From: a virus
IMG/VR virus record: IMGVR_UViG_3300018494_000461
Length of the DNA stretch: 20,608 nt
Direction: 5' to 3' (one strand)
Every line of letters begins with the position of its first letter. Positions within the stretch are counted from its first letter, which is position 1. The notes under the pieces were generated by a model. That model made no database searches and was not told where the DNA came from. It saw nothing but the letters and a program-made list of their open reading frames with translations. Positions 790-19,541 of this stretch are shown here, piece after piece. A program made the position numbers and the translations under genes.

Positions 790-1038
790 TCAATTTCCTT
801 TCTTTTTTCTCGCAATGCGGATTCGTTTACTTTCCATCTTGTTAGGAATATGCTCACGGGTCGCCAGTTCAGCTTTTACACGAGCCTGGTAGGCTCTCTT
901 GGCGGAATAATCTGCATCTTCCCAGTCATAATCGCCCCAGCGATATGTATGTCGCAGATGTGCCAGAAGCTGGCGAGTTTTCAGATTTTTCATCTGCTCT
1001 TCGGAGAGGATTCCGCAGTCTCTTTCAAAGTTACTCAT
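790..1038 (-). CDS. Hypothetical protein, 82 aa, basic C-terminus (RIRIARKKKGN)
   Basis: First ORF after promoter copy 1. ATG at 1038 is preceded by AAAGGAAGTGATTAA. The stop overlaps the RBS of the NAMPT gene. Confidence 0.55.
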   Translation of the reverse strand: MSNFERDCGILSEEQMKNLKTRQLLAHLRHTYRWGDYDWEDADYSAKRAYQARVKAELATREHIPNKMESKRIRIARKKKGN

Positions 1039-1066
1039 TTAATCACTTCCTTTACTTTCTATATAT

Positions 1067-1095
1067 ATTATATCATATTTTTTTATAAAAATCAA
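1067..1095 (-). promoter_or_regulatory. Sigma-70 type promoter, cassette copy 1: -35 TTGATT (1090-1095), 17-nt spacer, extended -10 TGaTATAAT (1067-1075)
   Basis: The minus strand reads TTGATT-TTTATAAAAAAATATGA-TATAAT. The same block occurs eight times in the window. Confidence 0.8.
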
Positions 1096-1120
1096 AAAAG
1101 CCCCTTGAGTCTCAAGGGGC
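1096..1120 (-). terminator. Intrinsic terminator: perfect 10-bp stem GCCCCTTGAG/CTCAAGGGGC with a 1-nt loop, followed on the minus strand by a U-tract that merges into the -35
   Basis: Hairpin at 1100-1120. The minus strand then continues TTTTTTGATT. It lies directly downstream of the lipoprotein gene stop (1127). Confidence 0.8.
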
Positions 1121-1126
1121 TTTTAC

Positions 1127-1528
1127 TTATTCCACTCTATCTTCATATAAGGTGAGGCCGCATTCTCCAGATTCGGGGAACCACTCGCAAATAGAAGTGA
1201 TTTTACCATCATAATCAGTGAAAATAACATATTCCATTCCGTCACTCATTACGAGGAAATATGTCCAACAAGCGCACCTATACTCTTGGAGCATAAACAC
1301 ATCGGGAACGTGTGCAAGAACTGTGCCAATAAAATCTTCATTCCCAATTCTCGGACCAATCATATCCTCTAAAATGAGAATAGCGTTTTCGTTAAGGTCG
1401 GGAATGGATTCAACAATTGTTTCCGTAGACGATGGGGTTTCTTCATAAGGGGTGTCGCAAGCAATAAGTGATACACAAAGGCAAATTGCCAAAACAAAGC
1501 AAATAAAAAGTTTAATCGCTTTCTTCAT
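1127..1528 (-). CDS. Predicted lipoprotein, 133 aa
   Basis: N-terminus MKKAIKLFICFVLAICLCVSLIAC has a signal peptide and a lipobox (LIAC). RBS AAGGAGAAGTGA. The ATG overlaps the Sir2 stop (ATGA). Confidence 0.7.
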   Translation of the reverse strand: MKKAIKLFICFVLAICLCVSLIACDTPYEETPSSTETIVESIPDLNENAILILEDMIGPRIGNEDFIGTVLAHVPDVFMLQEYRCACWTYFLVMSDGMEYVIFTDYDGKITSICEWFPESGECGLTLYEDRVE

Positions 1529-2298
1529 TTCACTTCTCCTTCGGGAATTTCAATTAAATTGAAGACATCTTGAATATCTTCATGGAAGACCAGCTCAGCT
1601 CTGAAATCTGCTACTGTAGGGTCTCTGTTAATGACAACCAGATGACTATCATCGCAGTAGAATGGCAGGCTTGCGGCAGGTTGAACTACCAGGGAGCTAC
1701 CAACCACAATCATCAGGTCGGCTTGAGCAGCTGCCACCTGGGCATTGCTCCAAGCAGGAAATGCCAGCCCTTCACCATACAGGACAATATCGGGTCGGAT
1801 AGTGCCTTCGCCGCACAGAGGGCATTTAGGAATATCATTTAGATTATTGTAGTTTCCATCCAATACATCTTCTGGAATAAACAAGTCGTGACCACAATCC
1901 TGGCAATACCAACGACTCATAGTACCGTGGACAGCATATATCCTATCCATGCCAGTGTCTTCGTGTAAACCATCAATATTTTGTGTAATCACAGACACTT
2001 TTCTTGCTTCCTGCAGCTCAGAAATTCTTTGATGGGCGATGGTTGGCTTAGCTCCACGAAAATCCATTTTTTCACGCAGATACTCGAAAAAAGCCTGTTC
2101 GTGCTTCTGAAGGCAGGTGCTGCTCAGCATATATTCCGGACTCTTGCCTCCAATATACGGACTTGCGTACAGACCATCCGCACTGCGGAAATCCGGAATA
2201 CCGGAGCCAGTTGAGATACCGGCTCCGGTAAAAAACACGATATGCCGAGCGTCCGCAATTATCTTATTTAGTTTCGCAATACGCTCATTAAAATCCAT
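1525..2298 (-). CDS. Sir2-family NAD+-dependent protein deacylase (sirtuin), 257 aa
   Basis: GAGISTGSGIPDFRS, QNIDGLHE, HG, and a Cys4 zinc module CQDCGHD...CPLCGE. RBS GGGAGAG is 7 nt upstream of the ATG. Confidence 0.9.
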   Translation of the reverse strand: MDFNERIAKLNKIIADARHIVFFTGAGISTGSGIPDFRSADGLYASPYIGGKSPEYMLSSTCLQKHEQAFFEYLREKMDFRGAKPTIAHQRISELQEARKVSVITQNIDGLHEDTGMDRIYAVHGTMSRWYCQDCGHDLFIPEDVLDGNYNNLNDIPKCPLCGEGTIRPDIVLYGEGLAFPAWSNAQVAAAQADLMIVVGSSLVVQPAASLPFYCDDSHLVVINRDPTVADFRAELVFHEDIQDVFNLIEIPEGEVK

Positions 2299-2301
2299 AT
2301 C

Positions 2302-2820
2302 TTACTCTCCCATTTGTGCCTTGACGCAAGCATCGCCTGCAGCCATAGCTTCTTTCAGTGCCTCTTGGGCAACCTTCATATCGCAGCCCTCTTTCTTCAA
2401 GAAAGGCATCACATTCTTCATAATGACACCCTTATTACCAGAGCAGATAGAAACTGCGTTACAAACTCCCCAGTAGTTAATCATCTTGACAATTTCATCC
2501 TTGTCGTCGATAACCTTAGGAGCATACTCCAAAGCGATAGAGAGCTTCATCAGATATTCAGCCTTACGAGCCTTCAATTCTGCATCTCTCTTGGGGTCTG
2601 TTGCCCCATCGGGACAGGTATCGACCATCTCTTGGACAGTCTTCTTATACTTCAACATCACTTCATCGACAAAAGCATCTGTGATTTCTACTCTCTTTTT
2701 ACCAGAGGTAGCAGCTTTGTCGATTGTGGCGACCATATCAGCCAGAGTCAAACGTCTCAGCTTATCGCCGTTTTTCAAGGCAGTTGTCATATCTGCCTTA
2801 ATAGACTCATACTTATTCAT
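2302..2820 (-). CDS. YqeY/GatB-domain protein, 172 aa
   Basis: The N-terminus MNKYESIKADMTTALKNGDKLRRLTLADMVATIDKA resembles the YqeY family start (M..L...IKEDMK.AMKAKDK.RL.TLR.L). RBS AAGGAG. Confidence 0.65.
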   Translation of the reverse strand: MNKYESIKADMTTALKNGDKLRRLTLADMVATIDKAATSGKKRVEITDAFVDEVMLKYKKTVQEMVDTCPDGATDPKRDAELKARKAEYLMKLSIALEYAPKVIDDKDEIVKMINYWGVCNAVSICSGNKGVIMKNVMPFLKKEGCDMKVAQEALKEAMAAGDACVKAQMGE

Positions 2821-2838
2821 TGGAGTCTACTCCTTTCT

Positions 2839-18339: not shown

Positions 18340-18637
18340 CAGTTGTTTCCTCCACCCATTGATTATATTTATCTAACATTAGTTGCCAATAATTGGCTCT
18401 TTTCGTTAACGTTTGCCGAACGATTTCAACAGCTCGCTTCTTAGCAGCTTCAAAATCTTCAGCATTAATATGAACTTTAATATCGGTAAAGCCTCTATCA
18501 TACCACCAAACAGTGTATCTATTTTCACCAATTTTGGCGACAGAAATTTCACATTTATTCCTATTAGTAGGTTTGCCCCAAATGGCAGACCAACATTCAA
18601 AGCCTTCGGGTCGATAGTCATGATATTCCCATTTCAT
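18332..18637 (-). CDS. Hypothetical protein, 101 aa
   Basis: RBS GGAGGTAAAGTAAT. Confidence 0.5.
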   Translation of the reverse strand: MKWEYHDYRPEGFECWSAIWGKPTNRNKCEISVAKIGENRYTVWWYDRGFTDIKVHINAEDFEAAKKRAVEIVRQTLTKRANYWQLMLDKYNQWVEETTDA

Positions 18638-18638
18638 A

Positions 18639-18998
18639 TTACTTTACCTCCGTCCAGCCATTTCGCTGAATAATTGCCTGCATTCTCTGTCTTGCCACAG
18701 GATTAGCAGAATGAATACGAATAGGAACATTGTGACCAGTAGCTTCCAGCCAGTCCAAGAGCTTATAACCTTCGGGAATACCTTCGCCTAGGTCATTGTC
18801 GCAAGAAACTTCTTCGATATTGAAAACTGCGAAGCACTTTTCAAACAGCTCTCGCTCCATATAACCCATGATATACTGCTTCCAGAGGAAGTCAGTTTCT
18901 TTTTTACAGCGGATAATCTCGCAGATGGCGCCATCAACGTCATAAACTCGAATATATCCGGCCGGTGCGGGACGCACATCATCCATCCAAATCTTCAT
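18639..18998 (-). CDS. Hypothetical protein, about 119 aa
   Basis: ATG at 18998 follows ACGGAGGATAATCTCA. The track ORF begins at a TTG at 19022. Confidence 0.5.
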   Translation of the reverse strand: MKIWMDDVRPAPAGYIRVYDVDGAICEIIRCKKETDFLWKQYIMGYMERELFEKCFAVFNIEEVSCDNDLGEGIPEGYKLLDWLEATGHNVPIRIHSANPVARQRMQAIIQRNGWTEVK

Positions 18999-19101
18999 TG
19001 AGATTATCCTCCGTTTCTCCAAAATAACAGCCGTCTCGGCTTTCTTTCATTTCACAGTCTTCCCAATAGACACATTGAGAACAAATCACAAAGTCTCCCA
19101 T
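18979..19101 (-). CDS. Possible tiny Cys-rich protein, 40 aa (MGDFVICSQCVYWEDCEMKESRDGCYF...)
   Basis: Not in the track. RBS GGGAGGAATA. TAATG coupling to the upstream Cys-rich gene. Confidence 0.25.
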   Translation of the reverse strand: MGDFVICSQCVYWEDCEMKESRDGCYFGETEDNLNEDLDG

Positions 19102-19445
19102 TATTCCTCCCGAATCTTAAAAGGACACCAATCGGGCACGGGAGGCATTTCGCTATCATACTCAATGTATCCAGTGATTTTGCGAGGTCCATTGGAAGTC
19201 TGACAGGCATTACAGTAGTAATCAAAAGCGAATCCAGCTCTTGGAGTGCGAGTTTCCTTAACACAAGGACATTCGTCGCATCGGCCAACGCCGATTACTA
19301 CCATTGCGGCAGGCTCGAAAGAATGGTCGGAACAGTGACCCTTATCGCACTTGTATCCTTCAACATCGCACTTTTTCAGTTTACAATAAATTTTATTGCT
19401 ATCCTCATAAGGAACACAATGCTTACACAGGACTCCTCTTTTCAT
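19101..19445 (-). CDS. Cys-rich protein with multiple CxxC pairs (zinc ribbons), about 114 aa
   Basis: CKHC, CDKGHC, CDECPC and CNAC. Start at the ATG at 19445 (GAAAGGAAG is 6 nt upstream) or at 19451. The track ORF to 19529 runs through the promoter and terminator. Confidence 0.55.
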   Translation of the reverse strand: MKRGVLCKHCVPYEDSNKIYCKLKKCDVEGYKCDKGHCSDHSFEPAAMVVIGVGRCDECPCVKETRTPRAGFAFDYYCNACQTSNGPRKITGYIEYDSEMPPVPDWCPFKIREE

Positions 19446-19476
19446 AACCATCTTCCTTTCTATTCTTTGTATATAT

Positions 19477-19505
19477 ATTATATCATATTTTTTATAAAAA
19501 ATCAA
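19477..19505 (-). promoter_or_regulatory. Sigma-70 type promoter, cassette copy 8: -35 TTGATT (19500-19505), 17-nt spacer, TGaTATAAT (19477-19485)
   Basis: Same cassette. Drives the nine-gene unit 16049-19445. Confidence 0.8.
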
Positions 19506-19509
19506 TAAA

Positions 19510-19541
19510 CAAAAAAAAGGCAGACTCATTAAGAGTCTGCC
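19510..19541 (-). terminator. Intrinsic terminator: 9-bp stem GGCAGACTC/GAGTCTGCC with a 5-nt loop, then an 8-U tract
   Basis: Hairpin at 19519-19541. On the minus strand it is followed by TTTTTTTTGTTTATTGATT. Confidence 0.8.

Follow-up and report, generated by a model that had tools for sequence, protein, structure and literature searches.

A 20,608-nt stretch of viral DNA from IMG/VR record IMGVR_UViG_3300018494_000461, analysed at its full length and called the window here, carries repeated copies of a cassette made up of a terminator, a promoter and a leader, which raises the question of what this repeat does and which sigma factor reads it. A sequence-only reading of the window had described the repeat as ~80 nt long and nearly identical in eight copies, and had offered as reasons for its conservation either recognition by a sigma factor or cofactor of the phage, or a selected UP element, initial transcribed region and translation-initiation region. 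Our analysis of the window and of its relatives, which were compared as stretches of IMG/VR contigs (no fetched stretch being the window itself), suggests that the cassettes probably mark the boundaries of early transcription units, that they act as strong promoters for sigma-A of the host, and that their promoter core doubles as portable homology.

Scanning the window for the 29-mer TTGATT-N17-TATAAT, with the spacer given in the sequence-only reading and up to three mismatches, yielded seven copies, all on the minus strand, against a chance expectation of 0.00 in 100 dinucleotide-preserving shuffles of the window. A relaxed scan of both strands recovered the divergent third copy (7111-7139) and no ninth, giving a total of eight copies where none is expected; all are present where they had been placed, with spans from start codon to hairpin that had been correct to within 2-4 nt (Table 1). 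Their placement on the minus strand had been left unstated; all eight are co-oriented with the genes, and essentially all plausible genes of the window lie on this strand as well. Alignment of the eight copies revealed invariant columns at TTGATTTTT, at an A-tract and at TATAATAT, and a common core layout consisting of a -35 element TTGATT, a 17-nt spacer of a T-tract and an A-tract ending in TATGW (an extended -10), the -10 element TATAAT, and ATATAT followed by a purine-rich start. Compared with housekeeping sigma-70/sigma-A promoters, the core agrees at 4/6 positions of the -35 and at all six of the -10, and has a 17-bp spacer in 8/8 copies and an in-register TG in 7/8; by sequence it thus has the features of a sigma-70/sigma-A promoter with an extended -10. 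Spacer variants in the window (T5ATA7, T6ATA6 and T7ATA6) move the TA centre by 1-2 bp while the total stays at 17. The leader that follows is 25-46 nt long with an AGGAG-type ribosome-binding site, and a Shine-Dalgarno sequence (SD) and a start codon lie downstream of the promoter in all eight copies, which bears out the proposed composite of terminator, sigma-70/sigma-A-type promoter and SD leader.

The extent of the conserved element is smaller than had been thought. Among the paralogous copies of the window the core (45 nt, from the -35 to ~+10) has a mean identity of 86.6%, versus 51-58% for both the 45 nt upstream, which hold the hairpins, and the leaders, which are essentially unrelated. 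The repeat is therefore a promoter core of ~45 nt, and of the ~80 nt that had been called conserved this part stands while the hairpin and leader sequences are unlike between copies; the terminators and ribosome-binding leaders that flank the core are, to judge from these alignments, equivalent in function and not sequence-homologous. Family copies were then picked only by TTGATT-N17-TATAAT, with spacer and flanks unused, which gave 202 copies (145 unique) in 511 kb. Within this set every spacer position carries 1.1-1.9 bits, the extended -10 TG 1.5-1.9 bits and the six positions of the ATATAT discriminator 1.25-1.75 bits; a purine occupies the predicted +1 in 141/145 unique copies, and positions +3 and +4 are AA at ~1.5-1.6 bits. 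Conservation well past both hexamers, as described earlier, is thus confirmed. The spacing is equally strict, with 202 copies at 17 bp versus one copy at 15, 16, 18 or 19 bp, and an SD, a start codon and an open reading frame (ORF) follow within 12-90 nt in 100/139 unique copies versus 7/131 in a reverse-direction control. Upstream of the -35 no position exceeds 0.6 bit. A selected UP element is thus not evident, as the GC-rich hairpin occupies its site and an A-rich upstream region belongs to the other promoter class of the relatives, described below. The idea that the T-run of the terminator serves as an UP element was likewise rejected, the information profile giving it no support.

In 7/8 cassettes the core is preceded by a GC-rich hairpin (-16.9 to -23.5 kcal/mol) whose T-run reaches the -35 or stops 0-11 nt short of it. 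These seven hairpins have 5-6 GC pairs followed by T4-T8 on the transcribed strand, the structure of intrinsic terminators, and each would close the unit upstream. The upstream fold of copy 3 has only -6.1 kcal/mol and consists of weak A/T pairing within the preceding ORF; this copy is indeed the only one without an upstream terminator, and read-through into the gene resembling the major vault protein (MVP) that follows it is supported as possible. Hairpin sequences are non-homologous between copies of the window, and orthologues keep the stem and vary the loop. The stop codons of ORFs 10832-11065 and 16049-16381 sit within the hairpin loops of cassettes 4 and 7, the two units for which this had been noticed, and a 37-codon ORF ending in the hairpin loop of cassette 8 is a possible third. 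Rfam and tRNA scans of the window returned no match, so the leaders are not known RNA elements. The only boundary of the window without a cassette lies at 19745-19970 (-). There, a good terminator (19944-19967) of the unit upstream of cassette 8 is followed by a ~170-nt spacer, which holds a GC-rich segment and a promoter-like sequence unlike the cassette (TGGGCATATATAAT).

Table 1. Cassettes, mobile module and class B promoter arrays; positions are those of the window unless a relative is named, and (-) is the minus strand.
Feature	Span (strand)	Hairpin	Promoter core	Downstream start and context
Cassette 1	1038..1124 (-)	1096-1124, -19.7 kcal/mol	-35 1090-1095; -10 1067-1072	SD and ATG at 1038, 28 nt past the -10; 82-aa ORF
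Cassette 2	4467..4547 (-)	4524-4547, ends MVP-like gene	4493-4521	ATG 4467, isochorismatase/nicotinamidase-like gene, first in NAD-salvage/Sir2 unit; hybrid
Cassette 3	7076..7150 (-)	none upstream	7111-7139 (TTGATTTTTTTATAAAAAATTTGTATAAT); divergent, no in-register TGn	ATG 7076, MVP-like gene; begins 12 nt past stop of ORF 7152-7409; module-insertion junction
Cassette 4	10754..10846 (-)	10821-10846, loop holds TAA of gp5.9-like ORF	10793-10821	ATG 10754, RNase_T-type exonuclease, first gene of RNA-ligase unit
Cassette 5	11969..12076 (-)	12043-12076	12016-12044	46-nt leader; ATG 11969, phage SigA-like sigma
Cassette 6	14571..14663 (-)	14629-14663	14602-14630 (T6ATA6 spacer variant)	ATG 14571; unit includes metallophosphatase and Thg1-like gene
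Cassette 7	15984..16067 (-)	16037-16067, loop holds stop of ORF 16049-16381	16009-16037	ATG 15984, metallophosphatase
Cassette 8	19445..19543 (-)	19517-19543	19477-19505	ATG 19445 (or 19451); hybrid
Mobile module	4524..7139 (-)	terminator of MVP-like gene	promoter core and leader	MVP-like gene (4560-7076)
Class B arrays	L014 422-6762 (+); L020 ~7.7-12.3 kb of locus (contig 18.3-22.9 kb, minus); L046; L053; phAss-1 record 127.7-135.4 kb			

The cassette is also found outside the window. The exact 35-mer TTGATTTTTATAAAAAAATATGWTATAATATATAT turned up in 64 IMG/VR stretches, drawn from more than 40 contigs (up to 192 kb long) with differing flanking genes; the cassette is thus present in related genomes, its absence from which had been named as a sign of local duplication, and a local duplication was rejected. 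The closest relative contig has 75-87% DNA identity to the window and the others 65-78%. Orthologous cassette cores are 87-100% identical (~79% for copy 3), as against 48-90% for the first 300 nt of the genes downstream and 42-85% for the hairpins, and the excess of core identity over that of coding sequence and hairpins shows that the core is under strong constraint or is continually homogenised. In a 176-kb relative (IMGVR_UViG_3300024270_000013) cassette-bearing stretches are limited to 141.8-176.6 kb and 2.6-23.9 kb, a range of about a third of the contig that forms one arm of ~50-60 kb, and the cassettes in them share one strand with few exceptions. The earlier picture of cassettes punctuating the genome is therefore an overstatement, as the relatives confine the cassette to the early or non-structural part. 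Megablast of the whole window against deposited phages gave no nucleotide match, and BLAST of the 53-nt core against the same phages hit nothing but generic A/T-rich promoters, at 75-84%, in Lactococcus, Staphylococcus and other phages, so that by this search the cassette was found in no deposited isolate. Lactococcus phages of the 949/WRP3 group (115-133 kb; hits H43-H57) each match the core at ~79% in 3-5 places, a hint of a repeated, conserved early promoter there too. At the protein level the isolates nearest to the window are large Bacillus siphophages, with an RNA ligase ~45% identical, and phAss-1, a phage of the human gut.

The complete phAss-1 record (OQ749652.1), joined from three pieces, was scanned for promoters, which revealed 26 of the form TTGAC(A/T)-YAAAAAAATTTTTRTGN-TATAAT-ATATATAGAAAGTGAG. 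The class is found throughout the early/middle arm and entirely on the strand that carries the non-structural genes, between 55.9 and 125.8 kb, with one further promoter at 3.5 kb ahead of the lysis genes, and the late structural block on the opposite strand has none of these promoters. The A/T-spacer promoters of phAss-1 have the same -10, discriminator and start region as the cassette (TATAAT-ATATATAGAAAG), although the proteins of phAss-1 are only ~30% identical to those of the window; they differ in the -35 (TTGACW) and in the spacer, whose A/T-tracts run in reverse order (A7T5 versus T5ATA7 here). The paper describing phAss-1 guessed Clostridia as the host and made no mention of promoters, sigma factors or terminators (PMC10607447). 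Next to these promoters with an A/T-tract spacer and an all-A/T discriminator (class A), phAss-1 and four relatives of the window (L014, L020, L046 and L053, with L020 part of the 176-kb contig that is syntenic with the window) have a second class (class B) with an A-rich upstream region, TTGACAAA, a variable GC-rich spacer and TGTG(C/G)TA(T/C)AAT. Class B promoters form a dense array, one per 300-800 bp, that lies upstream of the cassette region and shares its strand, and in phAss-1 as in the relatives a block of them at one genome end is followed by A/T-spacer promoters on the same strand; the window has the cassette class and no class B promoter. The class B array has the look of an immediate-early block made up of small genes. 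Where the two promoter-class regions meet in L020 (~6806-6823) and L053 (~2562), there are back-to-back divergent promoters with a common hairpin or a palindromic -35 (TTGACT/AGTCAA).

Recombination at the cassettes was apparent from the position of one module. In the window and in L031 the MVP-like module comes after the RNA-ligase unit and ahead of the isochorismatase unit; four relatives (L022+L060, L017+L034, L018 and L047) have it at another cassette, before homologues of ORFs 19101-19445 or 18639-19022. For cassette 8, the orthologue of the hairpin lies upstream of the MVP-like gene in a relative, and the orthologue of the leader in the cassette downstream of that gene there; given this hairpin orthology, cassette 8 is the 'empty site' left by the module. 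The hairpin of cassette 2 corresponds to the MVP terminator of the relative and its leader to the isochorismatase leader, while cassette 3 carries the MVP leader of the relative and abuts the end of the ligase unit, a place that two small ORFs and a terminator occupy in the relative. The hybrid cassettes 2 and 8 and the junction at cassette 3 therefore place the crossovers inside the conserved core, in line with the proposal that cassettes are recombination points bounding exchangeable modules. At a further site, the gp5.9-like gene together with its own terminator replaces a different terminator of the relative, and its downstream boundary falls exactly on the 5' edge of the core of cassette 4. 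At the level of junction sequences, movement is thus evident for the MVP-like module and, in the case of the gp5.9-like gene, at one boundary; other indels between relatives are internal to units.

The window itself encodes a sigma factor that might read these promoters. This protein (11067-11969, minus strand) is of primary type, ~50% identical to SigA of Bacillota, and has regions 1.2, 2, 3 and 4 but not region 1.1. Five orthologues, collected with narrow peptide patterns, all differ from SigA by W433Y, T440S and H455N, and the sigma of the window also by R584K (E. coli numbering, from the alignment). Among these five, region 4.2 does not covary with the -35: K or R at 584, and SKERIRQ, TKERIRQ and TRERIRQ, are all found with TTGATT. 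The sigma gene stands behind cassette 5 in the window and behind a cassette in every relative seen, so the phage sigma is not needed to start cassette transcription, and tblastn of the sigma against phAss-1 found no homologue (best E-value 0.11) although phAss-1 has the same promoter class. Together with the missing covariation of residue 584 with TTGATT, these observations argue against the earlier suggestion that the phage's own sigma is the recogniser. Nor does the cassette resemble a phage-sigma-specific class of the SPO1 gp28 or T4 gp55 type, its consensus being sigma-A-like, the sigma gene itself cassette-driven, and the class present in sigma-less phAss-1. TRTG is the consensus of the '-16 region' of B. 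subtilis promoters. Host sigma-A is therefore favoured as sufficient, given a cassette-driven sigma gene, a sigma-less phAss-1 and a near-consensus cassette with a TRTG extended -10, and we infer that the cassettes are strong early promoters of the host sigma-A type.

On this preferred reading, each cassette would be the border between two transcription units of the early accessory-gene region. The GC-rich hairpin and T-run would end the upstream unit, with the T-run abutting a strong promoter or lying within ~11 nt of it; downstream of the promoter would come a discriminator of 6 nt, all of them A/T, then a purine at +1 and an initial transcribed sequence rich in A/T and purines. Most likely, host RNA polymerase with the primary sigma of the host would fire the cassettes soon after infection. 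The T-tract-TA-A-tract spacer (which has AAAAAAATA), the A/T-rich discriminator and the start region would be determinants of strength of the kind found in T5 N25, acting through the trajectory of the spacer or a 'spacer UP element', through ease of melting and through rapid promoter escape; no new recognition code would be needed. The near-identical, co-oriented cores of ~45 bp also serve as portable homology, in which crossovers excise, insert and swap promoter-gene-terminator modules; this would keep each moved gene properly expressed.

Several observations weigh against this reading. The -35 matches the consensus at only 4/6 positions; start sites, termination and timing are all predictions; and the pointers to a host are only the similarity of genes to those of Bacillota phages and the guess of Clostridia for phAss-1. 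The conservation of the spacer, at 1.1-1.9 bits per position, is far above what sigma-A promoters are known to need, and its lineage-specific form (T5ATA7 versus A7T5) also fits co-evolution with a lineage-specific factor or homogenisation by gene conversion. A second, sharply different promoter class in the same genomes means that something may tell the classes apart, and the known sigma-bearing lineages are nearly uniformly TTGATT where sigma-less phAss-1 has TTGACW. Finally, indel boundaries coincide with cassettes in ~4/6 events, an excess that reaches significance when measured against all positions but not when measured against gene boundaries (8/~31), so the case for recombination is carried by the junction sequences.

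One alternative is that the cassettes are mainly read by the phage SigA-like sigma, with host sigma-A giving the first trickle of transcription that makes it, and with spacer, discriminator and TTGATT as its specificity determinants. The phage sigma would then separate class A from class B (TTGACAAA, a GC-rich spacer and TGTGSTATAAT), which host sigma-A would fire at once. We consider this unlikely. It is consistent with a full-length group-1/2-type sigma encoded in the region, with substitutions at DNA-contacting positions common to all five orthologues, with the coexistence of two sharply different classes in relatives and with the near uniformity of TTGATT on sigma-bearing contigs. It also accords with the report that, although sigma-70 promoters have no spacer consensus, spacer trajectory matters and spacer bending modulates the effect of region 1.1 (PMC4496709), the region that the phage sigma lacks. 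However, cassettes must fire without the sigma, whose gene lies behind one; phAss-1 keeps the same -10, discriminator and start sequence with no sigma homologue; residue 584 (K or R) shows no covariation with the -35; some contigs have TTGACA or TTGAAA in class A copies that stand beside TTGATT copies; and the correlation of sigma with -35 comes from two lineages only and is confounded by phylogeny. The two promoter classes and the report on spacer and region 1.1 nevertheless keep a discriminating role of the phage sigma as a minority hypothesis, in which the phage sigma is a candidate reader of one of the two classes and class-specific regulation possibly involves it or a cofactor. In its fuller form, which we likewise think doubtful, class A would be boosted or kept on by the phage sigma without region 1.1 and class B fired, at the leading genome end, by unmodified host holoenzyme; if true, this would be a two-class code, made up wholly of sigma-A-like -35 and -10 elements, in which spacer and discriminator, not the hexamers, discriminate, and a natural case of it with a primary-like phage sigma.

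The spacer could also be an operator. It is nearly palindromic (ATTTTTTATAAAAAAT here, CATAAAAA..TTTTTATG in phAss-1), perfectly so over 16 nt in 2/8 copies of the window, and might bind a dimeric regulator of the phage that switches class A units off, or on, jointly and at a set time; spacer conservation within a lineage and divergence between lineages would then reflect co-evolution with the regulator protein. Lytic phages commonly shut off their early promoters in a coordinated way. We nonetheless regard an operator as distinctly improbable, as any T-run followed by an A-run is self-complementary, so that the dyad symmetry may be trivial, as the shift of the TA centre by 1-2 bp at a fixed length of 17 is better explained by selection on composition and spacing than by a fixed operator, and as no helix-turn-helix protein was detected among the small ORFs of the window.

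Equally improbable, in our judgement, is that the extra conservation has no function, the copies being ordinary promoters kept alike by gene conversion or unequal recombination, or recent duplicates spread with mobile modules. Recombination inside the cores is demonstrable, and each lineage has its own uniform spacer as this explanation predicts. Conversion alone does not explain a 17-bp spacing in 202/203 copies with compensating lengths of T- and A-runs, and the account also has to face an exact 35-mer kept across contigs whose coding DNA is at 65-87% identity and a TATAAT-ATATATAGAAAG common to phAss-1 despite the distance of its proteins. A miniature transposable element or REP-like repeat was rejected, the eight copies being co-oriented with genes, directly upstream of start codons and, in their alignment, free of terminal repeats and target-site duplications.

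The cassette was also compared with known systems. T4-type myoviruses carry promoter-early stem-loop (PeSL) elements, in which a terminator and a promoter form a composite cassette (Arbiol, Comeau & Krisch 2010, PMC2839356; Comeau et al. 2014, PMC4122927). A further trait of PeSLs is that recombination between flanking elements yields mini-circles during infection, for which inverse PCR on infected cells was used (PMC2839356). They are elements for which crossovers inside the element have been proposed and experimentally supported (PMC2839356; PMC4122927). The order of parts is the same (stem-loop, sigma-70-like -35/N17/-10, SD, start codon), many conserved, co-oriented copies lie between accessory genes of plastic regions, and indels, replacements and displacements with crossovers inside the element move whole expressed modules. 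The cassette shares the upstream stem-loop (in 7/8 copies), the SD and start codon, the accessory-region location and the crossovers. In contrast, there is no sequence homology; the relatives here are siphoviruses resembling phAss-1, with hosts predicted among Bacillota/Clostridia, where PeSLs belong to T4-like phages of Gram-negatives; the core is more uniform and takes in the whole spacer and discriminator; and modules here are often multi-gene operons of 1-4 kb, where PeSL modules are single ORFans. As the nearest isolates are large Bacillus siphophages and phAss-1, with no DNA similarity to deposited phages, and not T4-like myoviruses, the cassette is an analogue, not a homologue, of PeSL.

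As a promoter the cassette resembles strong early promoters of coliphage T5 such as N25, in which an A/T-rich spacer ('spacer UP element') affects the trajectory of upstream DNA on sigma region 3, while escape is made faster by an A/T-rich initial transcribed sequence (PMC12464699). Both have an imperfect -35 (TTGCTT in N25, TTGATT here), a 17-bp A/T-rich spacer with UP-element-like A/T tracts, a perfect TATAAT, a 6-bp discriminator and an A/T-rich initial transcribed sequence (9/11 A/T in N25 and 9/11 in ATAGAAAGTAA here; PMC12464699). N25 differs in having a canonical UP element at -49, where the cassette has the GC-rich terminator hairpin, and a G at -5 in the discriminator, which is all A/T here, and T5 promoters are not reported as near-identical repeats bounding mobile modules. 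Among Bacillota sigma-A promoters with a '-16 region', TATG(A/T)TATAAT fits TRTGnTATAAT, and the -35 TTGAnn and 17-bp spacing agree too, but host promoters have no spacer consensus (PMC4496709), whereas the spacer and discriminator of the cassette are nearly invariant. The cassette would thus be a T5-like strong early promoter in its working and a T4-type PeSL in its behaviour, in a phage clade where such elements have not previously been described.

The eight cassettes lie within 20.6 kb of counter-defence-type genes. One unit is a Sir2, YqeY, phosphoribosyltransferase and isochorismatase (nicotinamidase-like) set (1525-4467, minus strand), which looks like a nicotinamide adenine dinucleotide (NAD)-salvage or NAD-related counter-defence set; in a comparable place phAss-1 has nicotinamidase, phosphoribosyl pyrophosphate (PRPP) synthetase and nicotinamide phosphoribosyltransferase. 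The MVP-like gene (4560-7076, minus strand) encodes 838 aa with an MVP shoulder and repeat domains, and its only matches in deposited phages are LR756500, LR756501 and LR756503 (huge uncultured phages of 462-735 kb; ~40% identity). An RNase_T-type exonuclease opens the RNA ligase unit, and the sigma unit holds the SigA-like sigma followed by a T7 gp5.9-like RecBCD inhibitor, a 77-aa ORF (10832-11065, minus strand; Pfam PF25708, E 2.7e-08) missing from the closest relative contig. Other units hold a Thg1-like enzyme, two metallophosphatases and a cyclic-phosphate-processing receiver domain protein; these, with the RNA ligase and a gene resembling ones annotated as nucleotidyltransferase, make up a cluster of RNA-repair-type genes spread over four units (7819-9237, 12450-13340, 13487-14227, 15106-15984, 16471-17358 and 18639-19022, all minus strand). 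The units of the window thus look like an early arsenal for counter-defence and RNA repair.

Taken together, these findings provide a ready transcription map, with predicted unit boundaries, promoters and terminators, for an uncultured clade of gut and rumen phages (130-190 kb) on whose regulation the literature searched yielded no information. They carry the PeSL idea of a regulatory cassette as portable homology from T4-type phages to an unrelated group with predicted Bacillota hosts, which suggests a convergent, general route to plasticity of counter-defence gene arsenals. The ~45-bp core is a candidate strong portable promoter for Clostridia-type hosts and a search key for early regions of related phages in metagenomes. 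The part that merits experiment is the pairing of two consensus promoter classes with a SigA-like phage sigma, which poses the question of how spacer and discriminator sequence may set promoter class.

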